Shown piece by piece: positions 15,948-60,733 of a DNA stretch of 64,000 nucleotides; the stretch's first letter is position 1; each line of letters opens with the position of its first letter. The notes under the pieces were generated by a model, which was not told where the DNA came from, ran no database searches, and worked only from the letters and a program-made list of their open reading frames with translations. The position numbers and the translations under genes were made by a program. Source of the DNA: a virus. The stretch lies in IMG/VR virus record IMGVR_UViG_3300033074_002003, one strand, 5' to 3'.

Positions 15948-16730
15948 GTGAAGAAAGCATACGTATACATTATCACTTGTCACGAAAACGGGAAACAATA
16001 TGTGGGTGTAACAGTAAATCCAACTACGCGCTGGGGTGCGCACATTTACGGTGCATTTGCTGACGGCAGAACGAAATTTGCTCGTGCTATTCGCAAATAT
16101 GGCAAAGATGCGTTTGAGTTCAAGCTCATTATCGGATTTCTAACGCAAGATGATGCATATGAGTTCGAAATTCAGCTGATTCATGAACTTGACACAGTCA
16201 AAAATGGCTACAATTCAAATTACGGCGGCATGGGAGGTGTGTGTCCCTCTGAAGAAGTTCGCAAGAAAATCGCTGATGCAATGCGTGGTCGTGTACCATC
16301 AGATGAAACTAGAAAGAAAATTTCGGATGCGTGTTTACGTCGACGAGATATACTAGCAAAAAATGCTAGTGAACGTTTTCGCGGGAAAACTCTTACAGAA
16401 GAGCACAAGAGAAAGCTTAGTGAGGCAGGAAAAGGTAAGCACTCTGATCGTGTTTTTTCGGAAGAAACGCGCTATAAAATGGGCTCTACAAACCGTGGTA
16501 AGTGTCTTTCTGCAGAACACAGACGAAAAATAAGCGAAGCTGGGAAGGGCAGAAAGCACAGCGCAGAAACAAGAGCAAAAATGCGCCGGAAGGAAACACC
16601 TGAGCAATGCGAACAACGACGTCAATCTGCTTTGGCACGATGGGAAAGAATCAGAAATGAGCGTAACATCAAAGATGTGGAAATATCCACGGACTCGGCA
16701 TCTGGAGGGCAGCAAGTTCCAGAACGGTGA
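15948..16730 (+). CDS. GIY-YIG homing endonuclease with repeated NUMOD3-like DNA-binding motifs
   Basis: N-terminal YVYIITCHENGKQYVGVT...R...H motif; repeats TEEHKRKLSEAGKGK / SAEHRRKISEAGKGRKHS; markedly AT-rich relative to flanks. Confidence 0.85.
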   Translation: MKKAYVYIITCHENGKQYVGVTVNPTTRWGAHIYGAFADGRTKFARAIRKYGKDAFEFKLIIGFLTQDDAYEFEIQLIHELDTVKNGYNSNYGGMGGVCPSEEVRKKIADAMRGRVPSDETRKKISDACLRRRDILAKNASERFRGKTLTEEHKRKLSEAGKGKHSDRVFSEETRYKMGSTNRGKCLSAEHRRKISEAGKGRKHSAETRAKMRRKETPEQCEQRRQSALARWERIRNERNIKDVEISTDSASGGQQVPER

Positions 16731-17502
16731 TCACGATCTAGAATCGGTACCCTTCTCTGAAATCAGAGGAAAACACCTGATCATTGAAGAAAAGCTCGAC
16801 GGTGGAAATTTCGGTATTTCATTTGACAACGACGAAATGCTTTTGCAGTCAAGAGGACATTTTTTGCGTGGCGGTCCTCGTGAAAAAGAGTTTGAAATCT
16901 TAAAACAGTGGGCTGCGACACATGAAGAGACGCTTTTTAGTGTTCTTGGTGAGCGGTATGTGATGTACGGCGAAAACATGACAGCTGCACACACGATTTT
17001 TTACGATTCGCTCCCACACTACTTCATGGAGTTCGACGTCCTCGACAAGGAGACGGGAAAGTTCCTCTCGACACCGGCTCGCGACGCGCTCCTCCGCGAC
17101 GATTGCCTTCCGATGAGGATCGAACCCGTGCGTGTGATGGGCGTCGGGTACGTCGGTTCTCTCACAGAACTCCGCGGGATGGTGGGAAGGTCGAAGTTCG
17201 TTTCCGACGACATCGCTCGCAGTGCCATCGCCGCTGTCGAGAGGTCGCAGTTCGGGAAGCAGTGTGCCACTGAGCTCGAGCTCGATGGGCTCATTCGCTC
17301 GACATTCTATGTGGGACCCACGATGGAGGGACTCTACATCAAATGGGAGGAAGACGGCGAGGTGAAGGGCCGCTACAAATTCGTGCGAGATTCCTTCGTG
17401 AGTCACGTTGCGGGTGCAGAGGAACACTGGCACGACAGGCCTATCGTGCAGAATGGCCTCGTCGAGGGCAGGCTTGAGGCGATGTTTTCGATGGAGACCT
17501 GA
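16675..17502 (+). CDS. ATP-dependent RNA ligase-like nucleotidyltransferase (KxDG motif)
   Basis: KYPRTRHL, motif I EEKLDGGN, motif IV-like EGLYIKWEEDG, motif V-like RYKFVR; start overlapped by GIY-YIG ORF. Confidence 0.55.
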   Translation: MWKYPRTRHLEGSKFQNGDHDLESVPFSEIRGKHLIIEEKLDGGNFGISFDNDEMLLQSRGHFLRGGPREKEFEILKQWAATHEETLFSVLGERYVMYGENMTAAHTIFYDSLPHYFMEFDVLDKETGKFLSTPARDALLRDDCLPMRIEPVRVMGVGYVGSLTELRGMVGRSKFVSDDIARSAIAAVERSQFGKQCATELELDGLIRSTFYVGPTMEGLYIKWEEDGEVKGRYKFVRDSFVSHVAGAEEHWHDRPIVQNGLVEGRLEAMFSMET

Positions 17503-24250: not shown

Positions 24251-24289
24251 TGTTTGAACTTTGCTGAGCTCGCGCCGTATATTTGCGGA

Positions 24290-25906
24290 ATGAGCACAGA
24301 TTCTCTCTACACGGGTCGCAAGGTCGTTCTTCTTGGTGATGAGGCGCGGGCGGGACTCGTCGCCGGCCTCTCACTCCTTGCTGGAGCAGTCGCATGCACG
24401 CTCGGTCCGAAGGGCAAGTGTGTCCTCATTCAGTCGCAGGATTCAGGACCGCTCGTGACGAAGGACGGCGTCTCTGTCGCTCGTTCAATCTCCCTTCGCG
24501 ACCCGGCGATGCGCGCGGGTGCTGACCTGATCAGGGAGGCCTCACAGCGCACGGCAGACGTCGCGGGCGACGGGACGACAACTGCAACTGTGCTCGCACA
24601 CGCGATGGTGATCGAGGGGCTCGCGGCGATCAACAAGAAGAGCAATCCTGTCTCTGTGAAGAAGGGGATCGATATCGCGGTAGACGCCGTCGTCGCGGAG
24701 CTGAAGAGGAGCTCGAGGAACATCGACGCAGAGCACCTCCTGAAGCAGGTCGCGACGATCTCAGCGAACGGTGACGAGGCGATCGGCCTGCTCATCGCCC
24801 AAGCCGTGAAGAAGATGGGAGACGCGGGCGTCATCACCGTCGAGGAGGCGCGAGGGTCGACCGCCACGACCCTCGAGTTCGTCGAAGGCCTCCAGTTCGG
24901 GTGTGGGTGGATGAACTCTTACTTCGCGACGAACACGGACAAGATGGTCGCGGAGCTACTAAACCCGCTCGTGCTCCTCTGCGATCAGAGAGTCTCGACG
25001 TCGAGCGACCTGAGACCCGCACTCGAGGCCGCGCACAAGTCCGGTCGCCCGCTCCTCATCATCGCCGAAGACGTCGAGGGCGAAGCCCTGCAAACACTTA
25101 TCGTGAACAAAGTGAAGGGCCTGCTACAAATCTGCGCCGTGAAGGCACCCGGATGGGGAACCGCCCGCGCAGAACTCCTCAACGACATGGCGACCCTCAC
25201 GGGCGCGAGGGTCGTGTCGCCAGCGACGGGCCTCAAGATCACTGACGTTCGCCTCGAGCACATGGGCTCTGCGGAGCGCGCGACATCAGACAAGGCGACA
25301 ACGACGATTGTGGGAGACGGAAAGACTGTCGACGCGATCTCTGGACGCGTGACAGAACTTCGCGAGCGACTCGCCGTCCCTTCGCTCACGTCAGAAGAGC
25401 GATCGCAGCTTATCGAGAGGATCGGAAAGCTCTCGGCGGGCGCCGCTGTCATTCGCGTGGGCGGGTTGACGGAGGTCGAGGTGCGAGAGCGAAAGGATCG
25501 CGTCGATGACGCTGTCTGCGCGACGAGGGCGGCTCTGGAGGAGGGCATCGTTCCGGGCGGGGGCACCGCTCTGGCGCGGGCCTCTGGGTGCCTCGCAGAA
25601 ATTATTTCGGGCGAAACGAACAGGGACATCAGGACGGGATGCGAAATTGTCCGAGCGGCGTGCCTCGCGCCCATCAGACAGATCGCCTCGAACGCTGGTG
25701 TGTCACCTGACGTCGTCTCGGAACGGTCGCTTCACCCGGCGAACGCGCCTTTCTGGGGCTGGGACGCGGCGAGCGGAGACTGGCGCGACCTCGGCAAGGC
25801 GGGCATCATCGATCCGACGAAGGTGACGCGCACGGCACTTCAACACGCCGCGTCCGTCGCGGGCGTATTCCTGACGCTGGACGCCGTCGTCCTCGACGAG
25901 GTCTGA
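24290..25906 (+). CDS. groEL: GroEL/Cpn60-like chaperonin
   Basis: LGPKG, VTKDGVSVA, DVAGDGTTTATVLA, GGG.AL; 538 aa. Confidence 0.9.
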   Translation: MSTDSLYTGRKVVLLGDEARAGLVAGLSLLAGAVACTLGPKGKCVLIQSQDSGPLVTKDGVSVARSISLRDPAMRAGADLIREASQRTADVAGDGTTTATVLAHAMVIEGLAAINKKSNPVSVKKGIDIAVDAVVAELKRSSRNIDAEHLLKQVATISANGDEAIGLLIAQAVKKMGDAGVITVEEARGSTATTLEFVEGLQFGCGWMNSYFATNTDKMVAELLNPLVLLCDQRVSTSSDLRPALEAAHKSGRPLLIIAEDVEGEALQTLIVNKVKGLLQICAVKAPGWGTARAELLNDMATLTGARVVSPATGLKITDVRLEHMGSAERATSDKATTTIVGDGKTVDAISGRVTELRERLAVPSLTSEERSQLIERIGKLSAGAAVIRVGGLTEVEVRERKDRVDDAVCATRAALEEGIVPGGGTALARASGCLAEIISGETNRDIRTGCEIVRAACLAPIRQIASNAGVSPDVVSERSLHPANAPFWGWDAASGDWRDLGKAGIIDPTKVTRTALQHAASVAGVFLTLDAVVLDEV

Positions 25907-27381: not shown

Positions 27382-27390
27382 ATTATACCA
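27382..27390 (-). promoter_or_regulatory. extended -10 promoter TGGTATAAT driving leaderless 26986..27375
   Basis: minus-strand TGTGGTATAATctgcgcATG. Confidence 0.45.
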
Positions 27391-27406
27391 CAGGCAGAGA
27401 ATTTGT

Positions 27407-27595
27407 TCACTCAACAATGACACGCACGAGGTCATCTCGCAGGGCGATAAGCATTGTGGTGCGCGTCTTCGGACAGTACGCGTCACAGATAAGCCGGTCA
27501 GCTGTCTCGTGCTTGTCGCGCCAGGTGCGCAGGACGACGAATATGTTGCCCGTGACCGTGCCTCGAATGAGGCTACCTACCCGAGCGCTCTCCAT
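27407..27595 (-). CDS. array-family small protein (divergent; ends LVRVIVE)
   Basis: ARVGSLIRG motif; start ambiguous. Confidence 0.4.
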   Translation of the reverse strand: MESARVGSLIRGTVTGNIFVVLRTWRDKHETADRLICDAYCPKTRTTMLIALRDDLVRVIVE

Positions 27596-48410: not shown

Positions 48411-48424
48411 CGGTGGTTTAGATT
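48411..48424 (+). promoter_or_regulatory. putative -10 GGTGGTTTAGATT with structured leader (hairpin GGCGG-TAATGCACT-CCGCC) and SD AAGGAGAGAGAAC
   Basis: upstream of 48476 gene. Confidence 0.3.
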
Positions 48425-48475
48425 GATGTTGTCAGGCGGTAATGCACTCCGCCGGAGAGACCAAGGAGAGAGAAC

Positions 48476-48775
48476 ATGGCCATCACGGACAAGCCCAAGT
48501 ACGGTTCGAAGAGCAGCCCCGATCCCGAGAAGCGCCACTTCTTCAAGTGGGCCGGCGAGAAGTCGGGCGAGGGCATCGGCACCTGCATGCACTGCGGCCT
48601 GCAGATGAAGTTCGAGGAGAACGGCGCGCGGGGCGGGAAGCACCGCGTGTACAAGAAGAAGGGCGAGCGCGCCTGGTCCGAGAAGGAGACCCAGTGCGTC
48701 GCCCGCTCGCGGTCGCTCGCCCTCGCGGCGAAGGAGCCGAAGCCCGCCAAGAAGGCGGCGAAGAAGGCCGCCTGA
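48476..48775 (+). CDS. small basic Cys/His protein (putative zinc-binding), paralog of 58764..59039
   Basis: shared H.FKW.....G.GIG.C.HC...LKF.ENG.RGGKHR.Y; Lys/Ala-rich tail. Confidence 0.55.
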   Translation: MAITDKPKYGSKSSPDPEKRHFFKWAGEKSGEGIGTCMHCGLQMKFEENGARGGKHRVYKKKGERAWSEKETQCVARSRSLALAAKEPKPAKKAAKKAA

Positions 48776-48830
48776 GACCTCGCGGAGACATCCTGAACAA
48801 CCCGTGCGGGTGACGTATAGTTATCCCCAC

Positions 48831-48915
48831 GGGTTGGATGCTCTAACGGTAGGGCAACGGGTTGTAGCCCCGTCAGACCTCCGGGTCTAAGCAGGTTCGA
48901 TTCCTGCCCAACTCA
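48831..48915 (+). tRNA. tRNA-Tyr (GTA), type II with long variable arm
   Basis: acceptor GGGTTGG/CCAACTC, anticodon loop TTGTAGC, variable stem AGACC/GGTCT, T-arm GCAGG-TTCGATT-CCTGC. Confidence 0.7.
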
Positions 48916-49036
48916 CAAAAAAAGCGGTGAACACCCGGGCTGTGCGCCATATACTATCTCTTGCGGGGTAGTGTACAGAGCACGTGCAGCCTCATAAGCT
49001 CACAGACCGAGGGGCAGCTCCCGGCGACCGCACCCA

Positions 49037-49681
49037 ATGTTGATTGTATGTGACGAGTGTGGAAAAGAATACCCTCCCAAAGGTATCGCCACACATAAAT
49101 GGCGAACTCACGGTGATGGAATTGGGTTCAAGCCAACGGGCAACAAGCGTGTGGTTTGGAATAAGGGCCTTACTAAAGACTCTGATATTCGTGTCGCTGT
49201 AGGAGCTGAAAAGCTTTCTGTCACGATGACACGACTCTGTCAAGAAGGCAAAATCAAACCACCATTGATGTCAGTAGAGCAACGACAAAAATTGTCTCAG
49301 CGGCAATCACTACATAACTCGGGCGGTAAATCACGATGGTATGAAGTCAGTGGACAAAAGGTGCAAGGACGCTGGGAACGTGATTTTGCACTAATGATGT
49401 TGAAGCTGGGCATCACATGGATCAAACCCAAGATCGGAAGAGATATTTGGCGCTACACTCGACTAGATGGCGTGATTAAATCATACACACCAGACTTCTT
49501 CTTAGAAGAACTCTCGTTGTTCATAGAGATCAAAGGTTTCTGGTGGGGTGCTGATCGCATAAAGATGAAGCTTGTTCAAGAACAATTTCCTGAACGTAAG
49601 ATAAAAATTATCGAGAGAGAGCTATATAATAAGCTCTTGCTTGCTGAAAGCAAATCTGATTTTCTTGGGATGTTAGCTTAG
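49037..49681 (+). CDS. AT-rich putative PD-(D/E)XK-type (homing) endonuclease with N-terminal Cys/His zinc-finger-like motif
   Basis: CDECGKEY...HKWRTHG; C-terminal PDFFLEELSLFIEIKG fits PD-x(n)-ExK; low GC versus flanks; 3-prime end overlaps tRNA-Phe. Confidence 0.45.
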   Translation: MLIVCDECGKEYPPKGIATHKWRTHGDGIGFKPTGNKRVVWNKGLTKDSDIRVAVGAEKLSVTMTRLCQEGKIKPPLMSVEQRQKLSQRQSLHNSGGKSRWYEVSGQKVQGRWERDFALMMLKLGITWIKPKIGRDIWRYTRLDGVIKSYTPDFFLEELSLFIEIKGFWWGADRIKMKLVQEQFPERKIKIIERELYNKLLLAESKSDFLGMLA

Positions 49682-49738
49682 ACGGTTAAGCGATCGGTTG
49701 AAACCCGGTAGTCAAGGATTCGAGCGCCTTACATCCCA
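49667..49738 (+). tRNA. tRNA-Phe (GAA)
   Basis: acceptor GGGATGT/ACATCCC, D-arm GCTT..AAGC, anticodon loop TTGAAAC. Confidence 0.8.
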
Positions 49739-49745
49739 CTAATTT

Positions 49746-49817
49746 CGCTGTGAGGTCGAGTGGTGAGACGTCCGCTTCATAAGCGGTAGGATGCGGGTTC
49801 GAGTCCCGCCACAGCGA
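49746..49817 (+). tRNA. tRNA-Met or Ile2 (CAT)
   Basis: acceptor CGCTGTG/CACAGCG, anticodon loop TTCATAA, T-arm GCGGG-TTCGAGT-CCCGC. Confidence 0.8.
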
Positions 49818-49832
49818 CGGTCCGAAAGATAC

Positions 49833-49912
49833 GCGCTCGTAGTCTAAAGGATAGGCAGCGGCTTCCTAAGCCGAGACGAAAGTCAATGTAGGTTCGAGTC
49901 CTACCGGGCGTG
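49833..49912 (+). tRNA. tRNA-like, candidate anticodon CCT (Arg) with 13-nt variable arm (GAC-GAAA-GTC)
   Basis: acceptor GCGCTCG/CGGGCGT (2 GU), T-arm GTAGG-TTCGAGT-CCTAC; D-arm weak. Confidence 0.4.
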
Positions 49913-49963
49913 CTGAGATTCGAGTGAGAGGAAGCTTCGAACCTCCCACTCGTTTTCTCTTAC

Positions 49964-50359
49964 GGGGGTGACAGGTTTCGACGGAGGAAAGGAGTCCCAC
50001 CTGCGAGCGAGCAGCAATCAGTGACGACTGCTCTGAAAGATGGCACTGACGCTTAAACGCGAACGATAACGGCACTTCTCTCGCCCTCGCGGCCTGAGCG
50101 TCCCCCGTAGCAAGAGATGAGCACTGTAGCTCTCGGGACGTCATCTACTGTGCATCTATGTGGGCGGCACCGGTCCGCTCTCAGAATTTCACGGTGTAGG
50201 AGCGTGCGGGTTTCGTTCCCCGGGCGCTCCGAAGTAGTGAGAACGAATGTGCGCCAGCAGAGGACTGTCGGACCGACGGTGATAGGTGAAATTCACATAC
50301 GCTCGTAGACGGTGAGATGAACTGACTTTCGGACGAGGGTTCGATTCCCTCCACCTCCA
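49964..50359 (+). ncRNA. ssrA: tmRNA (SsrA); tag ORF 50059..50097 encodes ANDNGTSLALAA
   Basis: 5-prime GGGGGTGACAGGTTTCGACGG, 3-prime GGACGAGGGTTCGATTCCCTCCACCTCCA with G3-U70 Ala identity pair; canonical AND...LAA tag. Confidence 0.85.
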
Positions 50360-50462
50360 CTGTAGTGAGCTCTGTGAGGAATGCAGAGAGCCCGTGACTA
50401 TCACGGTGCAACATGGTAAAGAGTTGTTAGGCGACGGTGAGTCGCGGTAACAAGGGAGCATC

Positions 50463-51668
50463 ATGGACATCCATACTTTCAAGCGTGTCGTCAAGTACCT
50501 CGAGCCGACCAAGACCTCGGACGGGAAGGTGATGAGGCCCCCGGCGATCATGATCACCGGCAGACACGGCATCGGGAAGAGCGGTGTCATGAGGCAGATC
50601 GCGGCGGAGGTCTGCGGGCTGCCCCTGATCGATAGGCGCATCGGGCAGATGTGCGAAGGCGACCTCGTGGGTCTCCAGAAGATCGACGGCGAGTTCACGA
50701 AGTTCCTCCCGGTCGAATTCATCCACCGCGCCTCCAAGGAACCGCACTTCCTCTTCTTCGACGAGGCGAACCGCGGCACGAAGGAAGTGATGCAGGTGAT
50801 GTTCCAGCTCGTCCTCGACTACGAGCTCAACGGCGTCGTGCTCCACCCCGATACCCGCATCGCCATCGCGGTGAACGAGGGGTCCCAGTACACGGTGACG
50901 CAGATGGACCCGGCCCTTCGCGACCGGTTCTTCTACGTGGAGCTCGAGCCCACGGTGGACGAGTGGATCGAGTGGGCGAAGGTGGAAGGCCTGCGCCCGG
51001 AGATCGTCTCCTACGTCACGCAGCATCCCGCGCACCTCGACACGCCCGCGGACACCAGGATCGCGGGTCGCACGCCCTCGCGCCGCGCGTGGCACATGTT
51101 CTCCGCTCCCCTCGATCGCATGATGATGCAGGACGGTTTCGCTGTCGAGAAGGACGAGTGCGTGTTCGAGCTCTTCTCGCTCGCGAGCGGGTTCCTGGGC
51201 GCCGCGGTGGCGGCCGACTTCAAGGAGTACGTGCTGGAGAACTGCAAGCGTCCCACCGCGGAAGACGTCCTGAACGACTGGCCCACCACCCGCGCCCGCC
51301 TCGCTCGCATGGGCGGCAACCCGTGGATGCACATCATCGACACCGTCTCAGACTGGGCGAAGAACGGCCGGATGACCGACGCACAGCGCGACATGTTCTG
51401 TGACATGTTCAACGAGGCGCCCGCCGAGTACCGCATGGCGCTCTGGCAGAAGATCGCGCAGATGCGCGTCGTCGAGGACGAGGGCACCCTGCACAACATC
51501 GTGCTCATCCACTCGAAAATCAAGCGGAAGCTCGTCGCCGCGATGATCGGCGAGGAGGAGGCGGAGAAGCGGTTCGCGGAGGACGAGGAGCGCTACCAGA
51601 AGTTCATGGCCGAGGAGGCCGCACGCGCCGCCGAGGCGGAGGGTGGCAATGTCGCTGCTGGAGCCTGA
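50463..51668 (+). CDS. MoxR-like AAA+ ATPase (AAA_5)
   Basis: Walker A ITGRHGIGKS, Walker B LFFDEANRG; SD AAGGGAG. Confidence 0.7.
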   Translation: MDIHTFKRVVKYLEPTKTSDGKVMRPPAIMITGRHGIGKSGVMRQIAAEVCGLPLIDRRIGQMCEGDLVGLQKIDGEFTKFLPVEFIHRASKEPHFLFFDEANRGTKEVMQVMFQLVLDYELNGVVLHPDTRIAIAVNEGSQYTVTQMDPALRDRFFYVELEPTVDEWIEWAKVEGLRPEIVSYVTQHPAHLDTPADTRIAGRTPSRRAWHMFSAPLDRMMMQDGFAVEKDECVFELFSLASGFLGAAVAADFKEYVLENCKRPTAEDVLNDWPTTRARLARMGGNPWMHIIDTVSDWAKNGRMTDAQRDMFCDMFNEAPAEYRMALWQKIAQMRVVEDEGTLHNIVLIHSKIKRKLVAAMIGEEEAEKRFAEDEERYQKFMAEEAARAAEAEGGNVAAGA

Positions 51669-53121
51669 CGTGTCACCCTCGAGCGAGGGTGATACTGTCG
51701 GGGGTATGAGCGACACCGACGACGGTGAGAAGAAGTGGTCGCCCCTCTCGAACGACGCCTTCTTCGTGAAGGGCAAGAAGATCGAGCCGGCTAACACCAC
51801 GCACGTGAGGCAGCGTCTCGACGATTACCTCGTGAAGCTGTACATCGACGAGCCCTTCTGGGCGCGGCTCTCCGCACACACCTCGAAGGTGATCACCCGT
51901 GCCATCCCGACTGCCGCTGCGACGTGGCACCAGGGCGGGTTCATCATGATGTTCAACCCCGATTTCATCGGTGGCCTCGACTCTGCCGGGAGGCGAGAAG
52001 AGGTCTACGGGGTGATCAAGCACGAGCTCTCGCACATCGGATTCGGCCACCTTGGTTCTCGGTACTACCCCGATGACATCGAGGAGCAGGTGAAGAAGAT
52101 GAACCCCGACGAGTACAGGGCGTTCGAGAGGAGGAAGAAGATCCTGCAGGCCGCGACGGACTCCGCGATCAACACCCTCCTCCTCGACGACGGGGAGATG
52201 AACGGCAAGAAGTGCGAGCTGCCTGGCGCGCCCTGGGTTCCCGGGCTCCGTCCCGGGACGCCGCTCGATCCCGTGAAGGACCCGCTGAACCCGCTCCAGG
52301 CGCTGAGGCTGGCTCTGCCTCCGTCCCCGTTCGACGAGGCCGTGATGGGTGCAGAGAAGCTCCAGTCGACGGACTACTACTACCAGCTCTATGACAAGTT
52401 CATTGCCGAGAGCGATGGCGAGGGCGGAGCCGGGACCGATTCCCACGACATGTGGGGGACGGGCTCGAAGCGGATGATCGAGGTCGAGGCGAGGCGCATC
52501 CTGAAGGACGCGGTGAAGGAGGGAGAGGGCCGCGGGTGGGGGACAGTCCCCATGAGGATGCGAACCATCCTCAGGCAGATGGTCTCCAACGAGGTGAACT
52601 GGCAGGACCGCCTGCGACAGTGGATCGGGATCAACGGCGACCCTGCGACACGCTTCAGGACCCGCAGGCGCGTCGACCGCAAGTACCCGGGTCTCTTCCC
52701 CGGCGTGAAGCGGCAGCGCGGCGTTCGCGTTGCGGTCGCGATCGATCAGAGCGCGTCTGTTCACGACGCGCTGCTCACCCGGCTCCTCGCCGTCATCGGT
52801 GGACTCTCAGAGGTCGCCACCGTCACCCTCATCCCCTTCGACACTGCGGTCGTCGAGGAGAGGATCGAGGCGCTCACTGTCGGGCAGCAGCCGTCGTTCG
52901 AGCGCGTCGCCTGCGGAGGGACGGACTTCGATTGCATCACCGGGTGGGTGAACATGCCGAAAAACGAGAACGTGTTCGATGTCCTCATCATCGCGACCGA
53001 CGGTGAAGCTGCACGCCCGCAGGCGTGTCGGATCCCGCGTGTCTGGGTCATCGGTCCGGGCTGCAAGCTCCACTTCGAAACCGACGAAGAGGTCATCCAG
53101 CTCAGCGACGAGACGGTGTAA
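51649..53121 (+). CDS. VWA-domain protein with N-terminal putative zincin-like domain (DUF2201-like), MoxR partner
   Basis: HELSHIGFGH (HExxH-like), MIDAS DQSAS in RVAVAIDQSASVHD. Confidence 0.6.
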   Translation: MSLLEPDVSPSSEGDTVGGMSDTDDGEKKWSPLSNDAFFVKGKKIEPANTTHVRQRLDDYLVKLYIDEPFWARLSAHTSKVITRAIPTAAATWHQGGFIMMFNPDFIGGLDSAGRREEVYGVIKHELSHIGFGHLGSRYYPDDIEEQVKKMNPDEYRAFERRKKILQAATDSAINTLLLDDGEMNGKKCELPGAPWVPGLRPGTPLDPVKDPLNPLQALRLALPPSPFDEAVMGAEKLQSTDYYYQLYDKFIAESDGEGGAGTDSHDMWGTGSKRMIEVEARRILKDAVKEGEGRGWGTVPMRMRTILRQMVSNEVNWQDRLRQWIGINGDPATRFRTRRRVDRKYPGLFPGVKRQRGVRVAVAIDQSASVHDALLTRLLAVIGGLSEVATVTLIPFDTAVVEERIEALTVGQQPSFERVACGGTDFDCITGWVNMPKNENVFDVLIIATDGEAARPQACRIPRVWVIGPGCKLHFETDEEVIQLSDETV

Positions 53122-53198
53122 CCCACACGGGACCGTGGTAGAGTCTCTCTAGTTGCCGCCGCCGAATTACCTGCGGCCGCTAACTCGGAGAGTGTCCC

Positions 53199-53753
53199 AT
53201 GGCCAAGCGTGTCGTCACGAGTCACCTTTCACCGATCGTCGCCGCTGCCGTCACCGACGGGCTGCAGGAGCTGAAGCGCTCCTCACACGTGATGGTGTGG
53301 GGAGTCCTGAAGCGGGTTGAGGCGTTCTGCAGCCGAGAGATCGCGAAGCTGCGTCCCTCCGTCGACGAGTGGGTTACGGGGGAGCTCGGGAAGCTCGATC
53401 CCGGCGAGTACGAGCGGGTGGTGAAGCTACCCAATAACCTGGTGGTGCACCTGCGCAACCGGAACGCGAAGGCGAAGGTCGTCCTCGAGGGACCCGCGAA
53501 GGCGCTCCTGCGCGCGAAGCGCGTGTCCCAGGAGTCCATCCTCACGGCGGTGTCGGAACCCGTGCGCGCCTTCGATCCGGAGAAGATCGAGGCGCTGGTC
53601 GCGATCGGGAAGGTCACGCGGGCCGAGGCAGACGCGGTGCTCGCTCCCGCGCCCGTCGCCCCCGAGCTGCACGTGAAGTCGTACCCGGGGCTCGAGGAAC
53701 ACATCGCGGTGTCGGTGATGGCGTTTGCCGAAGCCACCCGGCGCGGGCGGTAA
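53199..53753 (+). CDS. hypothetical protein
   Basis: ORF track 184 aa. Confidence 0.5.
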   Translation: MAKRVVTSHLSPIVAAAVTDGLQELKRSSHVMVWGVLKRVEAFCSREIAKLRPSVDEWVTGELGKLDPGEYERVVKLPNNLVVHLRNRNAKAKVVLEGPAKALLRAKRVSQESILTAVSEPVRAFDPEKIEALVAIGKVTRAEADAVLAPAPVAPELHVKSYPGLEEHIAVSVMAFAEATRRGR

Positions 53754-53775
53754 GCGCGTGAATCCTTGCCGCTCG

Positions 53776-53786
53776 TGGGATATAAC
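53776..53786 (+). promoter_or_regulatory. -10 element TGGGATATAAC, 6 nt before ATG 53793 (leaderless)
   Basis: motif class. Confidence 0.4.
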
Positions 53787-53792
53787 AGTCTC

Positions 53793-54122
53793 ATGAGCGG
53801 CACCGATATCACAGACGAGATCTGCGAGTCCGAGAATCCGGGACCGAACGTCCACCCGTTTTGGGTGGACACGGTTCGTCAGCAGATGGAAGAACGGTTG
53901 CGGCGTATTCGCCCCACCGATCACGACGCCGACAGGTTCAACGTGATGGTCGATGCACAGATTCGTGCGCACGAGTCTTCTGACGAAGAGCTGCTCGCCC
54001 TGCGCGAGAACGCGCGCCGAACGATGGTGTTGCACCCCGACGCGGAAGCGCAGGTGCGTGCCTACCTTCGCGAAGGTGTGTATGATAGAGACATCATCCG
54101 CAGGAAGATGGCGATCCGATGA
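53793..54122 (+). CDS. hypothetical protein
   Basis: internal Met MSGTDITDE preferred because of leaderless promoter. Confidence 0.45.
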   Translation: MSGTDITDEICESENPGPNVHPFWVDTVRQQMEERLRRIRPTDHDADRFNVMVDAQIRAHESSDEELLALRENARRTMVLHPDAEAQVRAYLREGVYDRDIIRRKMAIR

Positions 54123-54475
54123 GGGACATCGTTCGAATCTGCAACGAAATCAAGGAAGCCACGCTGCACGAAAAAGCGTGGGGGACAGCGTTCTGGAAGT
54201 TCGAAGAAGAGGCGGTTCGCCTGGGACTTGCTGTTACGGCAAAGTCCGACGATCCATCTGCGTGTGCAGAGGTGCGCGAGCTGTTGCTTATCGCAATCGA
54301 GCGCGTCGACTTCCTGAGGAGCTACACACGCGAAGAGTTGTACGCTCTCCATGATGCTGCGGCTCGCGACATGAGAGAGAAGACAGACGCTCGAGAGCGC
54401 GTGATCGCATTCCACGTCGCGCGATTTTATCTCATGAAGGTGTTCAACCTGGGCGTGAAGGAGTATCCGAGATGA
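54119..54475 (+). CDS. hypothetical protein
   Basis: ATGA coupling. Confidence 0.45.
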   Translation: MRDIVRICNEIKEATLHEKAWGTAFWKFEEEAVRLGLAVTAKSDDPSACAEVRELLLIAIERVDFLRSYTREELYALHDAAARDMREKTDARERVIAFHVARFYLMKVFNLGVKEYPR

Positions 54476-54684
54476 TCAATGCAATCTGGTACGGTGATCC
54501 GCCCGAGAAGTGCGACACGTGCGAGTCGCCCATCACCGACGAGTTCGTCGACGGTCGAACTGTGGGTGGCGTCTGGGCGTGCATGTGCAAGCGCTGCCAT
54601 GGGATGTTCGGGCACGGCCTGGGCACGGGCAAGGGACAGCGCTACAAGCTCGTCGACGGGAAGTTCGTGAAAGCGGAGGGATGA
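54472..54684 (+). CDS. small zinc-ribbon protein
   Basis: CDTC...CMCKRCHG; ATGA coupling. Confidence 0.45.
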   Translation: MINAIWYGDPPEKCDTCESPITDEFVDGRTVGGVWACMCKRCHGMFGHGLGTGKGQRYKLVDGKFVKAEG

Positions 54685-54881
54685 TGCTCGCGATCACACC
54701 GAGGCAGGCGACGATCCTCACCCACCTCGCTGCAGGGCTCGTGAAGAAAGAGATCGCCGAGGAGCTGGACATCACCACCGACACGGTGAAGTTCCACCTC
54801 ACCGTCATCCGCCGGCGCCTCTGCGCGAAGAACGCTGCACACGCTGTCGCGATCGCCGTCAGGAAGGGAATCATAGCGTGA
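54681..54881 (+). CDS. LuxR/GerE-type HTH transcriptional regulator (66 aa)
   Basis: LTPRQ..IL..LA.G...KEIA..L.I...TVK.HL..I..KL...N...A pattern; GGAGG SD; ATGA overlap. Confidence 0.55.
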   Translation: MMLAITPRQATILTHLAAGLVKKEIAEELDITTDTVKFHLTVIRRRLCAKNAAHAVAIAVRKGIIA

Positions 54882-55297
54882 GCGTGCGGACGAAGCCGTT
54901 CGAGGACGCGGTCATCAAGGGATTCCACGATCCCAACGGGCTCCTCGTGTTCGATTACCAACCCGGGAACGGGACGCGGTACGTGATCTCGATCACGACG
55001 CTCGACGAGGTGTCACCCGAGGCCCGCGACCTCATGGGCCTCAAGTTCGACACCGTCGGGATGCTGTGCCTCCACAACATGGGATCGCACCGCTGGCTCG
55101 AGGTGCCGGACAGCCGCGGGACCCTGATGCTCTCTGACGTCATCAGGCAGCTCGGCCTCGAGAAACACGTGTCAGACGCCGTCGTGGTCGCCGAGTTCGC
55201 TGCGCACGTCTGCAAGTGCTACCTCTCGCACCCCGCCAACGAGGAAACCGTCCGCCAGTTCGTGAACGCGCGTGACCCCGACATGTCCGGGTGGTAG
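54878..55297 (+). CDS. hypothetical protein
   Basis: ORF track 139 aa. Confidence 0.45.
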   Translation: MSVRTKPFEDAVIKGFHDPNGLLVFDYQPGNGTRYVISITTLDEVSPEARDLMGLKFDTVGMLCLHNMGSHRWLEVPDSRGTLMLSDVIRQLGLEKHVSDAVVVAEFAAHVCKCYLSHPANEETVRQFVNARDPDMSGW

Positions 55298-55300
55298 AGT
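55292..55300 (+). promoter_or_regulatory. extended -10 TGGTAGAGT, 6 nt before ATG 55307 (leaderless)
   Basis: motif class. Confidence 0.45.
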
Positions 55301-55306
55301 CTACTC

Positions 55307-55789
55307 ATGGCAAACAACGAACCCCGGATGCTCTTCGCTCTCCCGTCCATCGAGTGCGCTGCACTCTGGGAGGCCTTCTGTGTGGGACAGCTCTCGGACG
55401 GCTACTGGGAGGGTGCACGCCCGCTGCATCACTGGGTGCCGTGGTGCTCCGCGCGTGTGGTGGTCGACGCCGTCCGTCCCGGTCGCGAGGGCGCGTACGT
55501 CCCGCGTGACAAGTACGCGCTCGACAACAAGGAGCTCATGGAGATCCTCGGGTTCGAGATGCAGTACTTCCTCGGGCTCGTGCGCAAGTACCCGGGGCAC
55601 GCGCTCGTCCTCCCCAAGTGGGACCTGCCGCGCAGCCCATCATGTCACGCGGAGATGAACGCGGACCCGGGCAGCAAGTTCGGTGCCCTCGGGCTCGCTC
55701 CGCTGTCACCGAGTGAGGTGCCCTCGCTCCTCGAGGTGAAGAAGGTGCTGCGCGCCATCAAGCTCGCGATGCGCACCCCTCGCGTGTAG
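55307..55789 (+). CDS. hypothetical protein
   Basis: ORF track 160 aa. Confidence 0.5.
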   Translation: MANNEPRMLFALPSIECAALWEAFCVGQLSDGYWEGARPLHHWVPWCSARVVVDAVRPGREGAYVPRDKYALDNKELMEILGFEMQYFLGLVRKYPGHALVLPKWDLPRSPSCHAEMNADPGSKFGALGLAPLSPSEVPSLLEVKKVLRAIKLAMRTPRV

Positions 55790-55835
55790 TTCGACAACGG
55801 GTGGGATACATTCAGCTCTAGGAAGGCAGGAAACC

Positions 55836-56291
55836 ATGAAGAAGATGATGATGCTCGCGCTCGTGTTGTGTGCAGTCGGTTGCGGTGCGGCGGTGGAGGC
55901 GCCCCCGATCTCGACGAGCGACACCGGATCGTCCCCCACGGACACGGGCCCGCCCATCGCGGTGGACACGGGTGCGGCCGACACCTCCCCCGAGGTCGCA
56001 GTCGACGCGGGTCCCAGCCTCGGGTGCACCGCGTACCCGAAGGAGGACAACACGATCTCGTGCAGCTTCGAGGCCGCGGCGGGCGCCGCCTACTACGCGG
56101 AGGCGCGCGACAGCGAGTTCGGAGCCATCGTCCCGGCGCTGGTGGAGTCGCGCGTGTGCGACCTCGACGGCTGCACCGAGTTCGAGGCGGTGTTCACCGA
56201 GGCGACCCCCACCGAGGGTCGGAAGGTCCGGACGGACGTGACCCCGCGTGCCTCCACCCGGCTCGTCACGGTGAAGTGGTCCGCCTGGTAG
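55836..56291 (+). CDS. putative lipoprotein
   Basis: MKKMMMLALVLCAVGCG lipobox; SD GGAAGG. Confidence 0.55.
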   Translation: MKKMMMLALVLCAVGCGAAVEAPPISTSDTGSSPTDTGPPIAVDTGAADTSPEVAVDAGPSLGCTAYPKEDNTISCSFEAAAGAAYYAEARDSEFGAIVPALVESRVCDLDGCTEFEAVFTEATPTEGRKVRTDVTPRASTRLVTVKWSAW

Positions 56292-56317
56292 CGCTCGCGT
56301 GACTGGGTTTCCCCACA

Positions 56318-56327
56318 GGGATATAAC
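56318..56327 (+). promoter_or_regulatory. -10 GGGATATAAC with 18-nt leader containing SD GGAGAGA
   Basis: upstream of 56346. Confidence 0.35.
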
Positions 56328-56345
56328 TGGAAGTAGGAGAGACCC

Positions 56346-57074
56346 ATGGACGAAAAACTGAAGTCGGTCATCGAGAAGATCAACAAGCTCCGCGCGCTCG
56401 CCACGAGCTCAAACCCACACGAGGCCGCCTCGGCGGCGGCCCGTGCTGCGGCTCTCATCGACGAGCACCAGCTCTCGGAGGCCCAGCTGGAAGCTGTGGA
56501 GAACCGCGAGTCACCTCAGGTCGCGGACGATCCGATCCTTCGCGGGAAGGTGATGTCACAGTGGAAGGTGTGGCTCGTTCACGGGCTCGCCGAACACTTC
56601 GGTGTCTACTCGATCCGGCAGGTTCGTCGTGGGGGCGAGGACGACATCAAGCTCACGGGCCGCGCTCGTGACGTGGAGATCGTCCGGTACTTCTTCACGT
56701 GGCTCTCTGCCGAGGTGGAGCGCCTGTGCAGGGCGAACAAGCCCCCGAGCTGTGGGATGAAGTGGACCGTCACGTACCGCAACGGCGTGTCGCACGGGAT
56801 CTGCGTGAAGCTCAAGGAGATGAAGCGCGCCGAGGTGGCTGCACGCGTGTCCACGTCAGCGGCGATGGTGTACCTCGACTCGCGGTTCGCCCTCGCGCGT
56901 GAGGTGTACGTGAAGTCGATGGCGCCGGGACACCGTGTCGTTGCCACGAAGGGCTGCTACGGCTCCGATCTCAACGCCTTCAACCAGGGCGTGCGTGACG
57001 GCAAGGCGATCAACCTCGGTGCCCAGCTAGGAGGCGGCGACGGGTCGAGCGCGGGACCACGACTCATGCGGTGA
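56346..57074 (+). CDS. hypothetical protein with DUF2786-like N-terminus
   Basis: KINKLRALATSSNPHEAASAAARAAALIDEH pattern. Confidence 0.5.
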   Translation: MDEKLKSVIEKINKLRALATSSNPHEAASAAARAAALIDEHQLSEAQLEAVENRESPQVADDPILRGKVMSQWKVWLVHGLAEHFGVYSIRQVRRGGEDDIKLTGRARDVEIVRYFFTWLSAEVERLCRANKPPSCGMKWTVTYRNGVSHGICVKLKEMKRAEVAARVSTSAAMVYLDSRFALAREVYVKSMAPGHRVVATKGCYGSDLNAFNQGVRDGKAINLGAQLGGGDGSSAGPRLMR

Positions 57075-57494
57075 CTCCCTCTCGTGAGCGGGTTACAACA
57101 TACTTACAGAGAGGAACGAACCCATGTCCAAGAACACTGCCAAGAAGCCGCGCGATACGGTCCTCCGGGACGAGCTGATGCACTGCAAGTCGGGTGGCCC
57201 GATGCGCGACCGCCGGGAGCGCCGCGCGAAGGAGAAGAAGCACGCGTGGAAGAAGGAAGAGCTCTGATGTTCGGCTTCGACCCCGACGTCGTGTTCGCCT
57301 TCGCTCCCATCGTCGGGGGCGCGGGGTACCTCGTCCTCGAGGGGATCGTGGCCGCCTGGGAGTACATGGCACTCTAGGGTGTGCCTCGCGGCTGACTTGA
57401 GAGCACACTTTGTGCCCGGGATGGGTTCCTATACCTCCCGGGCACAGTGCTTTTCTACGAGGTTCTGTGGGTCGCGTGTAATCGCGGGTGCCGC

Positions 57495-57502
57495 GGTATA
57501 CA
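57495..57502 (+). promoter_or_regulatory. -10 GGTATACA, 8 nt before ATG 57511 (leaderless)
   Basis: motif class. Confidence 0.35.
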
Positions 57503-57510
57503 CTGTCGAT

Positions 57511-57810
57511 ATGGCAAAGCGAATCGATGTCCTCGTTGGTAACGCGACCCTGCTCGTGCGTGAGGTCCCGGGGGAGCACTCGACCCTGAAAGACGACGGC
57601 GAGCGGGCGGAAAACCGCCTCTTGCGTGCTGTGGCGAGGTGGTACGGCTTTCCCGTGAAGGGCGTGTGGCGGTGCGGTACCCTCGTGGCGATCGACATCG
57701 ATTGCGGTGACGACTACGAGCTCTGCTCGCAGTGCAACCGCGATCACGAGTACGATGGGCACGGTCCCGAGTGCGCCCGTGATATCAATGACGCGGTGGA
57801 GTATAACTGA
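57511..57810 (+). CDS. hypothetical protein
   Basis: MAKRIDVLVGN; Cys-rich C-term. Confidence 0.45.
   Translation: MAKRIDVLVGNATLLVREVPGEHSTLKDDGERAENRLLRAVARWYGFPVKGVWRCGTLVAIDIDCGDDYELCSQCNRDHEYDGHGPECARDINDAVEYN
57797..57807 (+). promoter_or_regulatory. extended -10 TGGAGTATAAC, 6 nt before ATG 57814 (inside 3-prime end of previous CDS)
   Basis: motif class. Confidence 0.4.
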
Positions 57811-57813
57811 GTC

Positions 57814-58077
57814 ATGGACAAGGCAACCACCCAGAAGTTCCTCGAAGCGTGGATCGCGTACACGGGCTTCTCGCCCGGTAGTGTGAAGGACATCCGCGTC
57901 GAGGAGGACCCGATGTACAAGGGTACGTACGCCGGCCGCGTCGATGTGGGCGATCCGAAGCCCTTCGACTTCATGGTCACCGGGTGCAACCCGGTCACGA
58001 TGACGACCGACGCGATCGCCGACCTCATCGAGGAGTGCGAGTTCGTCGCGTTCCCACCTCGCGTGCGGGGTCGGTGA
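57814..58077 (+). CDS. hypothetical protein
   Basis: ORF track 87 aa. Confidence 0.45.
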   Translation: MDKATTQKFLEAWIAYTGFSPGSVKDIRVEEDPMYKGTYAGRVDVGDPKPFDFMVTGCNPVTMTTDAIADLIEECEFVAFPPRVRGR

Positions 58078-58274
58078 TGCCCCTCGAGGCCATCACGCTC
58101 GCGCAACTGCGGGATCGCAACCGCGGCGCGTTCAGTCGCATGCCCGCGAAACTCGCTCGCGCCTCCTTCCTCACGGACGGGAAGAACGTGTCTGCCACCC
58201 TCCCGGAGTCCACCCACGTATGGACGGGCCGGAAGTGGGTGGTCGCGCGTGATAGCGGATCGGAAACGAAGTAG
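58077..58274 (+). CDS. hypothetical small protein
   Basis: TGATG overlap; MPLEAITLAQL. Confidence 0.35.
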   Translation: MPLEAITLAQLRDRNRGAFSRMPAKLARASFLTDGKNVSATLPESTHVWTGRKWVVARDSGSETK

Positions 58275-58277
58275 AGT
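58271..58277 (+). promoter_or_regulatory. -10 GTAGAGT with leader SD GGAGAGAG before ATG 58297
   Basis: parallels 56318 element. Confidence 0.35.
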
Positions 58278-58296
58278 GGGAAGTAGGAGAGAGCAC

Positions 58297-58674
58297 ATGG
58301 ACCCGAAACTCGGAATCGAAATCACCAACGAGGACATCACGTTCGCCGACGGGATCGACGACTCCGACGGCTGTCGCCCACCGCTCGCAGAAGAGGTCGA
58401 GCTGCACGCGTGCACTCGCGATCCCGACTGGCTCCTCGCCCTCCTCATCGCGGAGATCGCGCGTGGCGCTCTGAAACATGGCGATCCCGACGTGACACCT
58501 CGCCAGATGCGGTGGATCGTCGCCACAGAGATCGGTGCACTCGAGAGTGCACTTGCGGAACACGTTCGAGACTTCTACACGCGGGTGAACGACGATATCG
58601 GGCGTGTCAAGGCCCACAACACGAGCTTCTCCGGGGGGACGAAGGGGGAGGAAAAAGAATGCGAAGACGCGTGA
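58297..58674 (+). CDS. hypothetical protein
   Basis: MDPKLGIEITNED; 125 aa. Confidence 0.45.
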   Translation: MDPKLGIEITNEDITFADGIDDSDGCRPPLAEEVELHACTRDPDWLLALLIAEIARGALKHGDPDVTPRQMRWIVATEIGALESALAEHVRDFYTRVNDDIGRVKAHNTSFSGGTKGEEKECEDA

Positions 58675-58763
58675 GGTTCGGCGCACGGTGAGATAAAACT
58701 AGATCATCAGGTGGGAACAACCACCGAGAACACCAACCAAGTTACGAAGGAAGAGAGAACACC

Positions 58764-59039
58764 ATGTCCAAGAGCACCAAGACCACTGCCAAGAAGCCCG
58801 TCACCCGCTACGGCGCGAAGACCGCCCCCGGGAAGGGTCACTCGTTCAAGTGGGAGGAGGCCCCCGGCGTCGGCATCGGGGTCTGCAGCCACTGCACCGC
58901 GAAGCTGAAGTTCGTCGAGAACGGCCCGCGCGGCGGCAAGCACCGCATGTACTGGCATGCCGGTGTCGACGGGGCGAAGGGCAAGTGGCTCCCGGAGGAG
59001 CCCAAGTGCAAGCGCGAGCCGGCCTCCAAGGCGGCCTGA
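58764..59039 (+). CDS. small basic Cys/His protein, paralog of 48476..48775
   Basis: conserved HSFKWEEAPGVGIGVCSHC...KFVENGPRGGKHRMY; leader hairpin GGTGG-GAACAA-CCACC; SD GAAGGAAGAGAG. Confidence 0.55.
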   Translation: MSKSTKTTAKKPVTRYGAKTAPGKGHSFKWEEAPGVGIGVCSHCTAKLKFVENGPRGGKHRMYWHAGVDGAKGKWLPEEPKCKREPASKAA

Positions 59040-59051
59040 CGCACTCCCACT

Positions 59052-59085
59052 GTCGGGTGGCGGCTCACACGGGTCGCCACCCGAC
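59052..59085 (+). terminator. strong 13-bp GC-rich hairpin (GTCGGGTGGCGGC...GTCGCCACCCGAC) without U-tract
   Basis: 12 nt after stop of 58764..59039, immediately upstream of tRNA-Met. Confidence 0.5.
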
Positions 59086-59095
59086 ACGCGTCTCA

Positions 59096-59169
59096 GGGCA
59101 CATAGCTCAAGAGGTTAGAGCTGTCGCCTCATATGCGATCGGTTCCGGGTTCGAGTCCTGGTGTGCCCA
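59096..59169 (+). tRNA. tRNA-Met or Ile2 (CAT)
   Basis: acceptor GGGCACA/TGTGCCC, D-arm GCTC..GAGC, anticodon loop CTCATAT, T-arm CCGGG-TTCGAGT-CCTGG. Confidence 0.8.
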
Positions 59170-59658
59170 CTGTAACAGCCCGTTGTCTAGTTCCCAATGG
59201 TGATTTGGACACAGGATTGCGATATTCGATTCAGCGTTGACGACGCTAAGTCGTGTGTCGAGATCAAAAGACGCAATTCCTTTGATGTGTGCAAATTCGA
59301 CGTGTTTGTCGTATGCACAAATCATACATTTGCGAGGAAGATGATCGTTCCACCGACGAGCGTAATAACGAACTGGTGACCACTTCTGATGTGAACTGAC
59401 ATTTTCTCTTTTGCACTTGTCAGCATAATATCGAAGCGTGAGATTGCGCGCGCGTCTGTCACTGTCCAGACATTCAACGACGCACTTGCTACAGAATCGT
59501 GTTTTGTTCGTTAGAGTACGTTTGAACTCGACTTTACACTCGTGACAAATACGTGTCGGTGCTCTCTTTGGACTGTTGAAGAGAGCGGCACACTTGCAGT
59601 TACAGAATTTGCGTGCTAGATTAGTCAGGGGTGTGTTACAGTATACGCACTTTTTCAC
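59107..59658 (-). CDS. HNH homing endonuclease (AT-rich)
   Basis: Cys-rich N-term; HNH core CMICAYDKHVEFAHIKG...NIAILCPNHHWELDNG; ORF 3-prime end runs into tRNA-Met. Confidence 0.75.
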   Translation of the reverse strand: MKKCVYCNTPLTNLARKFCNCKCAALFNSPKRAPTRICHECKVEFKRTLTNKTRFCSKCVVECLDSDRRARNLTLRYYADKCKRENVSSHQKWSPVRYYARRWNDHLPRKCMICAYDKHVEFAHIKGIASFDLDTRLSVVNAESNIAILCPNHHWELDNGLLQWAHQDSNPEPIAYEATALTS

Positions 59659-59723
59659 TCTCTGACTTTACAGATATTTTGTCATTTGTAACGGTGTGCC
59701 CACACGTGTTCCCAAGTTCGCTG

Positions 59724-60539: not shown

Positions 60540-60733
60540 ACAGGGACTCGGGAGGTCGCCCGATCAGGTTGGGCGACCTCGTCCGCAACGAGTTCGGTGT
60601 CATCGTTGCGCTGGGACCCACTACCACTTCGACCGGCTTGCGACTCGAATTCTTCTACTTGCCGTACTCTCGCACGGAACGGATTCGTACGGCATCACCC
60701 AGCATGTTCGGGAAGCGGGTCATCGCTCGCTGA
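60535..60733 (+). CDS. array-family small protein, solitary plus-strand copy (GTG start, GTGA overlap)
   Basis: VNRDSGGRPIRLGDLVRNEFGVIVALG...GKRVIAR. Confidence 0.55.

Follow-up and report, generated by a model that had tools for sequence, protein, structure and literature searches.

The stretch of DNA analysed here, a 64-kb window of the IMG/VR virus record IMGVR_UViG_3300033074_002003 (the window), carries two short genes, p1 and p2, each followed by a strong hairpin and then by a tRNA gene. The p1 open reading frame (ORF; 48476..48775, plus strand) is the second gene past the strand switch near 47.7 kb, in the rightward arm, and encodes 99 amino acids with an isoelectric point (pI) of 9.9 and a Lys/Ala tail ending in KKAA. 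The p2 ORF (58764..59039, plus strand) encodes 91 amino acids with a pI of 10.0 and ends in SKAA. Both ORFs were found where a first-pass annotation had placed them, and the paralogy it had proposed is borne out by BLASTP (56.6 bits, E = 3e-17, 38 of 92 residues identical). The two genes find each other reciprocally in six-frame tblastn searches of the window (E ~1e-14), and neither query recovers a third copy there (next match E = 0.24). The motif that the annotation quoted for both proteins is present as given, except for one gap and an M/L difference in its 'LKF' element, and the Lys/Ala-rich tails that it ascribed to both are distinct in p1 but merely vestigial in p2. GC content at third codon positions (GC3) is 0.97 in p1 and 0.95 in p2, the two highest values of the window, so that these genes have the most biased codons of the phage; their orthologs rank first and second among the 45 genes of the close relative L001. 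Comparison of nonsynonymous and synonymous substitution rates (dN/dS) among close relatives was uninformative, as there are too few differences.

Strong hairpins follow both genes, as had been proposed. The hairpin after p1 (48799..48835, plus strand; −26.9 kcal/mol, z = −3.5 vs. shuffles) is identical in L001 and L002, and the one after p2 (59051..59086, plus strand; −38.1 kcal/mol, z = −5.4), a perfect 16-bp stem conserved in L001–L008, is the strongest perfect hairpin of the window. Neither is followed by a T-run, and a terminator consensus scan calls neither. ARAGORN and Rfam confirm that a tRNA gene comes directly after each gene: tRNA-Tyr (GTA; 48831..48916, plus strand; Rfam score 29.7 bits, threshold 29) begins 55 nt past the p1 stop codon, and tRNA-Met (CAT; 59096..59170, plus strand) begins 56 nt past the p2 stop codon and 9 nt past the p2 hairpin. 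By the same two programs, tRNA-Tyr is the first gene of a tRNA/transfer-messenger RNA (tmRNA) cluster that reaches 50360 and includes tRNA-Phe, tRNA-Met, tRNA-Arg(CCT), and the tmRNA (these four within 49667–50360), and a third tRNA locus, tRNA-Arg (TCT), lies at 62015. The p1 hairpin overlaps the first 5 nt of tRNA-Tyr as well as a promoter-like site of the tRNA cluster found by consensus scan (TGAACA-16-TATAGT; 48794..48821, plus strand), which is nested in it. Exact TGAACA-N15-17-TATANT sites occur three times in the window, against 0.03 expected; two of them (48794–48821 and 48928–48955) flank tRNA-Tyr, and the third is at 27382–27409 on the minus strand.

No promoter-like site for tRNA-Met was found between p2 and the tRNA in a scan of the window. 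Because the spacer is only 9 nt long and holds neither such a site nor a T-run, tRNA-Met is likely to lie on the p2 transcript, that is, to be probably co-transcribed with p2. The weaker alternative of the first-pass annotation, promoter-proximal control of tRNA expression, fits this pair. This tRNA-Met does not resemble those in the clusters led by tRNA-Tyr. Segmental duplication of a gene-plus-tRNA unit was considered as the origin of both arrangements and found no support: the sequences that follow p1 and p2 cannot be aligned, and the tRNA-Met genes are dissimilar.

Upstream of p1 lie a −10-like TAGATT (48419..48424, plus strand), a candidate promoter element at whose place relatives have TGnTAnnnT; a 5′-proximal leader hairpin, GGCGG-TAATGCACT-CCGCC (48435..48453, plus strand), recognized by folding and leader comparison; and a strong ribosome-binding site, AAGGAGAGAGAAC (48463..48475, plus strand). 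The p2 leader aligns with that of p1 and has a weaker −10-like match, TAGATC (58700..58705, plus strand), also a putative promoter element, the hairpin GGTGG-GAACAA-CCACC (58710..58725, plus strand), whose stem has a T-A pair for a C-G pair of p1, and the strong ribosome-binding site AAGGAAGAGAGAAC (58747..58760, plus strand). The Shine–Dalgarno sequences reported earlier can thus be read in both leaders. The structured leaders reported with them hold up in part: as wholes the leaders fold no better than shuffles (z = −0.1 for p1 and −1.7 for p2), but the small 5′-proximal GC hairpin is conserved. Of 11 leaders compared across the family, eight contain the extended −10-like element TGnTAnnnT, and nine have a perfect, GC-rich hairpin of 4–5 bp located 4 to 11 bases past it. 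Its stems differ (GGCGG/CCGCC, GGTGG/CCACC, TGCGG/CCGCA, GGCCC/GGGCC, GGGGC/GCCCC, GGGTG/CACCC, and GGCG/CGCC). As a general promoter of the window, the p1 leader motif was rejected, since p1 alone matched it there.

A strong ribosome-binding site together with a strong 3′ hairpin also accompanies the gene in the distant phage-type relatives L011, L013, L016, L022, L025, and L026, whereas L024 has no comparably strong 3′ hairpin (−15.5 kcal/mol). A T-run behind the hairpin is clear in L026 and L027, and the corresponding sequence is less strongly T-rich in L011, L022, and L025. Comparison of the leaders and hairpins with known RNA families gave no match. The repeated arrangement of gene and hairpin, to which the first-pass annotation had drawn attention, is a real design. 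Judged from these sequence elements, each gene would form a self-contained cassette for high expression, made up of a −10-like element, a 5′ hairpin, a ribosome-binding site, and a 3′ hairpin.

The protein family and its putative metal site

The p1 and p2 proteins belong to a previously undescribed, very rare orphan family. An exhaustive profile search of 1.84 billion representatives returned 15 cluster representatives at E ≤ 1e-3, among them one spurious repeat protein (P0012), and 10 at E ≤ 1e-10. From 5.8 billion clusters, word-indexed searches returned just 3–8 proteins; with the full-length alignment as query, low-complexity tails dominated and only three proteins were returned. Altogether, the family comprises about 15–20 clusters among billions of metagenomic proteins, and all members are metagenomic and unnamed. 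It has no significant hidden Markov model match in Pfam, PHROGs, NCBIfam, or PADLOC, and no match among PDB sequences. Searches of GenBank phages with the locus, with p1, and with the core of family member P0007 gave no match in DNA or protein, and no relative turned up among IMG/VR viral contigs; GTDB genomes yielded two partial matches to P0015 and no more, both probably spurious. The p1 and p2 genes are genuine, and the protein is found on phage-like contigs.

In an alignment of 17 sequences, 10 residues are invariant (p1 numbering): H21, W25, G35, C37, C40, G50, R52, G54, R57, and C74. The first-pass annotation had proposed a zinc knuckle whose motif included His39 and His56, both of which vary among the 17 members. 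Because H21, C37, C40, and C74 do not vary, the ligands are more likely a His, a CxxC pair, and a distal Cys than a Cys/His knuckle; a metal site remains plausible from the invariant His and Cys residues, but its ligands differ from those first proposed. The site, likely of the form H-CxxC-C, would hold one putative zinc ion. An AlphaFold2 model of the core, calculated from 15 sequences (predicted local distance difference test [pLDDT] 78.7, predicted template modelling score [pTM] 0.64), has four strands and places the CxxC at the turn joining strands 2 and 3; five sequences gave a poor model (pLDDT 56). The domain is probably mostly beta-sheet and has about 70 residues, and its predicted zinc binding is suggested by the model topology as well as by the invariant residues. 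In a Foldseek search of PDB and BFVD with the core model, no structure scored below E = 1. Likeness to a ribosomal protein, eL43 or another, found no support in Pfam, PDB sequence, or fold searches.

Two subfamilies share an N-terminal (K/R)(Y/F)G(S/A)K motif. The p1-like proteins carry KYGSKSS..K.KRHFFRW and usually have long Lys-rich tails; the p2-like proteins carry YG.K..PGKGH.F.W and have short ends. Many members of the family have a Lys/Ala/Pro-rich tail, and the basic character noted for p1 and p2 extends to every member (pI 9.3–11.2). In two cellular-type members, P0016 and P0017, the domain precedes two mutually unrelated C-terminal regions, neither of which has a Pfam, PADLOC, NCBIfam, or PDB match, which indicates that the domain is an independent module.

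A separate observation concerns the extreme C-terminus. The last two residues are Ala-Ala in 10 of 18 non-redundant members, against about 0.5 expected from tail composition. Such ends (KKAA, SKAA, AKAA, TSAA, RKAA, DPAA, and others) are encoded at 48764–48772 in p1 and at 59028–59036 in p2, and are also found in P0004–P0008, P0018, P0019, and the L029 ortholog. They are reminiscent of the Ala-Ala with which the ssrA tag ends and could serve as a degron, or common descent alone could account for them.

By analogy, p1 and p2 would function most like small, basic nucleic-acid binders of the zinc-ribbon type and like histone-like phage proteins. The zinc-binding domain of the T7 primase (PF08273) is likewise a small beta-hairpin domain with a CxxC knuckle at the turn and a preceding G-x-G-x-G, and it matches two of the 15 family members weakly (best E = 3.4e-5). 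Zinc ribbons differ in having two CxxC/CxxH knuckles, whereas this family has one CxxC (C37, C40) and otherwise single residues (H21 and C74). Scores against curated zinc-ribbon models stay below the cut-offs (p1, 14.4 bits vs. DUF1451, cut-off 26.1; p2, 14.4 bits vs. Zn_Ribbon_Prim, cut-off 23), and there is no zinc-ribbon structure among the fold matches in PDB and BFVD. T4 gp32 combines a zinc site of one His and three Cys with the role of an abundant nucleic-acid binder whose action on the 5′ leader regulates its own mRNA. The likeness is a tentative one: the order and spacing of ligands differ (H-x15-CxxC-x33-C in the present family), and no OB fold or sequence similarity was detected. 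A WRKY/GCM1 zinc finger was rejected, with an hhalign probability of 0.3 per cent from a profile that does recognize the WRKY domains in PDB; the ligand pattern also differs from Cx4-5C...HxH/C.

Low-complexity AKKA/KKxA tails recall those of mycobacterial HupB and chlamydial Hc1. Such a histone-H1-like tail is short in p1, long in P0007, P0009, P0010, P0011, and P0014, and nearly absent from p2-like proteins. The phage histone-like proteins phi29 p6 and SPO1 TF1 are similarly small, very basic, and apparently highly expressed. The structured domains of HU/IHF, Hc1, and p6 are, however, unrelated to that of the family.

Gene order and tRNA adjacency among relatives

The first-pass annotation had suggested that the module of protein, hairpin, and tRNA recurs beside tRNA genes, and this is supported in part, for one subfamily only. 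In L001 and L002, which carry near-identical p1 genes, tRNA-Tyr lies 55 nt past the stop codon as in the window. It is found at 176 nt in L024 (P0007, 56 per cent identity to the window copy), where tRNA-Met, tRNA-Arg, and the tmRNA follow, at 144 nt in L026 (P0010, 46 per cent), at 94 nt in L027 (P0011, 49 per cent), and, beyond an HNH ORF, at 557 nt in L030 (60 per cent). In L029 (94 per cent) another ORF comes next and there is no tRNA, nor is there one at the L016 locus (P0014), whose protein has low identity. The L028 contig ends past its gene (P0009) and was left out of the count. A cluster led by tRNA-Tyr thus follows the p1-like gene in five of seven informative lineages (the window and L001, L024, L026, L027, and L030). 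Among p2-like genes, tRNA-Met lies 56 nt past the stop codon in the window and the near-identical L001–L010, whereas the distant L011/L012, L013/L014, L022/L023, and L025 keep the hairpin and have no tRNA, so that the adjacency is confined to the phage's own lineage (one of five). The distant cellular-type members (L015 and L017–L021) have no tRNA beside them. Nor does the module recur at the third tRNA locus of the window, where the neighbouring ORF, ending 6 nt before tRNA-Arg (TCT), is unrelated.

In most of the lineages with this adjacency a terminator-like hairpin separates the p1-like gene from tRNA-Tyr, in L026 and L027 as a T-run terminator, and just before tRNA-Tyr a promoter-like T(T/G)AACA-N17-TAnnnT is present in all four aligned lineages (the window, L024, L026, and L027). 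The surroundings are also shared: a minus-strand ATPase gene, a gene of 172–204 amino acids, the mini gene, the tRNA cluster, and the AAA_5 and DUF2201 genes follow each other in this order. L024 and L028 have the upstream part in common (ATPase, 172–204-amino-acid gene, mini gene), and in L024 AAA_5 and DUF2201 come after the tRNA cluster. Because synteny extends over the whole block, inheritance of gene order suffices to explain why p1 and the tRNAs are neighbours, with no functional link required. On the sequence evidence, p1 and the tRNA cluster appear to be transcribed as two distinct units that adjoin and remain together within a syntenic block, and the proposed protein–hairpin–tRNA module is not established as a functional system.

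The arrangement at tRNA-Met resembles known mRNA–tRNA co-transcripts that are cut by RNase P, such as E. coli thrU-tyrU-glyT-thrT-tufB and the T4 tRNA region, in that the tRNA closely follows the p2 hairpin and has no promoter-like site of its own; tRNA-Arg at 62015, 6 nt past an ORF, is similar. In both known systems the layout differs, as here the mRNA would come first and would have a very strong hairpin end, on a predicted co-transcript.

The L029 locus stands apart. Its p1 ortholog (5494–5817) has an altered, longer tail (…KKAYTRRPDPAA) and lacks the hairpin as well as the tRNA, and its stop codon is overlapped by the ORF that follows. The locus has either been rearranged recently or been assembled as a chimera.

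Proposed function and alternatives

From the observed family with its invariant residues, the anatomy of the cassettes, and the pattern of synteny, we infer that p1 and p2 are abundant, zinc-stabilized, non-specific binders of nucleic acid, more likely of DNA than of RNA, which are expressed from autonomous high-expression cassettes and whose proximity to tRNA genes is positional (probability roughly 0.5). Their role would be histone-like and independent of sequence. An extended −10-like promoter would drive each mini gene, the predicted mRNA would carry a short GC hairpin close to its 5′ start, followed by a purine-rich leader and a strong ribosome-binding site, and the strong 3′ hairpin would close a cassette built for high output. 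The p1-like gene and the tRNA-Tyr/tmRNA cluster would be neighbours that are transcribed separately and inherited together in the syntenic block, and transcription started at the p2 promoter would read through into tRNA-Met, which RNase P would then release, leaving the hairpin as a protective 3′ end of the p2 mRNA. Nucleic-acid binding and high abundance are predicted properties.

Several points weigh against this interpretation. Neither zinc binding nor nucleic-acid binding of p1 and p2 has homology support, and the promoters, transcript ends, and co-transcription that it invokes are sequence predictions. The function cannot centre on the tail, as the p2-like subfamily lacks long basic tails. 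The codon-bias argument for high output is confined to the lineage of this phage: by GC3, the mini gene of L013 has rank 17 of 44 and that of L024 rank 3 of 9. The leader hairpin occurs in a mean of 1.8 and a maximum of seven shuffled leaders over 1,000 trials, against nine of 11 real ones, but the real leaders are related, so this comparison overstates their independence. Moreover, the first tRNA after p1-like genes is always tRNA-Tyr, so that some functional tie to tRNAs may exist, and both paralogs would lie upstream of tRNAs by chance with a probability of about 1e-3, a rough estimate based on three tRNA loci and about 100 genes.

The same leader hairpin, conserved at a fixed position with differing stems, could instead be the operator of a specific regulator, either a protein that recognizes DNA or RNA by sequence or structure or a host-takeover factor that binds RNA polymerase, which would control its own synthesis as T4 gp32 or RegA does. 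The place of p1 soon after the strand switch suggests an early region, and the domain is fused to others in cellular members, as DNA-binding modules often are. However, the stem sequence varies, so that recognition would need shape; an mRNA stabilizer explains a 5′-terminal hairpin equally; and signals for very high expression combined with non-specific Lys-rich tails fit an abundant binder better. With no match to known regulators, we consider such a role unlikely. Phage tRNA clusters are now regarded as counter-defence tools, and a dedicated tRNA partner, which would bind, protect, chaperone, or help to process the adjacent tRNAs, for example by shielding them from host anticodon nucleases, would make sense of the p1-like genes that precede the tRNA-Tyr cluster down to 47 per cent protein identity and of the fact that both paralogs of this phage precede tRNAs. 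The proteins are basic and have a metal-site signature, and the phage has a fitting toolkit of six tRNAs, a tmRNA, and an RNA-ligase-like gene. Yet no tRNA is nearby in four p2-like lineages and at two p1-like loci (L029 and L016), cellular-type members are located away from tRNAs, and an unrelated ORF precedes the third tRNA locus; where gene and tRNA do adjoin, they are separated by a terminator, by a conserved promoter that serves the tRNAs separately, or by a homing-endonuclease gene, within a region that is syntenic throughout and in which adjacency needs no functional cause. We regard this explanation as quite unlikely, and we know of no dedicated protein partner of phage tRNA clusters.

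The size, charge, and single metal site of these proteins also recall small zinc-bearing ribosomal proteins in general, and p1-like genes adjoin the phage tmRNA/tRNA cluster. A protein of the translation apparatus, which joins the ribosome or the trans-translation/ClpXP pathway and whose Ala-Ala end makes it a substrate or decoy of ClpXP, would agree with the excess of such ends and with the phage tmRNA tag, which ends in LALAA. There is, however, no sequence or fold likeness to any ribosomal protein or known factor, most of the long-tailed p1-like members, which are the neighbours of the tmRNA, lack the Ala-Ala end, and this end is possibly a by-product of Ala/Lys-rich termini or of common descent; such a role is very unlikely. 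Stated more broadly, the family might be a phage-specific factor whose target is the tRNA/tmRNA system of the phage itself, either guarding tRNA-Tyr and tRNA-Met against host anticodon nucleases or, as an abundant protein with an ssrA-like end, engaging ClpXP alongside the phage tmRNA. A factor of this kind would account for the retention of p1-like genes before the tRNA-Tyr/tmRNA cluster in five diverged lineages and for the position of both paralogs before tRNAs, but we hold it to be highly improbable.

If p1 and p2 are indeed abundant, non-specific binders, they add one more orphan family to the small, abundant, metal-stabilized nucleic-acid binders of phages. Their clearly delimited, portable cassette, in which a promoter and a 5′ hairpin precede the strong ribosome-binding site and a 3′ hairpin ends the unit, could then serve as an example of expression design and help to recognize an uncultured clade of large phages with tRNAs and a tmRNA. 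The finding would carry far greater weight if the proteins acted on tRNAs, tmRNA, or ClpXP, for which the present evidence falls short.

Insertions, tmRNA, and other genes of the phage

Compared to L001, the window has a 522-nt insertion of low GC content (59171–59692). It directly abuts tRNA-Met on the 3′ side, and an 11-nt repeat of the tRNA end flanks it. The minus-strand ORF 59107–59658 encodes an HNH_2 endonuclease, and its last ~21 codons are antisense to tRNA-Met; it looks like a free-standing homing endonuclease. At the other locus, 49038–49889 stands in place of 217 nt of L001 and contains a low-GC ORF (49037–49681) with a Phage_endo_I-like C-terminus, tRNA-Phe, an extra tRNA-Met, and the start of tRNA-Arg(CCT). 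With the HNH-type ORF between the p1-like gene and tRNA-Tyr of L030 (1118–1543), independent endonuclease insertions at these tRNA loci number three. Cassette exchange has a hot spot in the tRNA cluster.

The phage tmRNA is kept across diverged relatives (49964–50360 in the window, 1537–1933 in L001, 1259–1655 in L002, and 7195–7539 in L024), and its tags read ANDNGTSLALAA, ANDNGTSRALAA, and ANDNATSLALAA. Elsewhere in the window are a GroEL-type chaperonin gene (24254–25906; PHROG 5725, E = 1e-141) and an RNA-ligase-like gene (16657–17502). The chaperonin is at most 48 per cent identical to that of any GenBank phage, which indicates that the phage has no cultured relative; the combination of chaperonin, RNA-ligase-like gene, tRNAs, and tmRNA points to a large uncultured phage. 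Further strong hairpins occur at gene ends in the rightward arm with high GC3 (47.8–64 kb), at 53767–53802 (15 bp) and 60552–60580 (13 bp), and may mark additional boundaries of transcription units.

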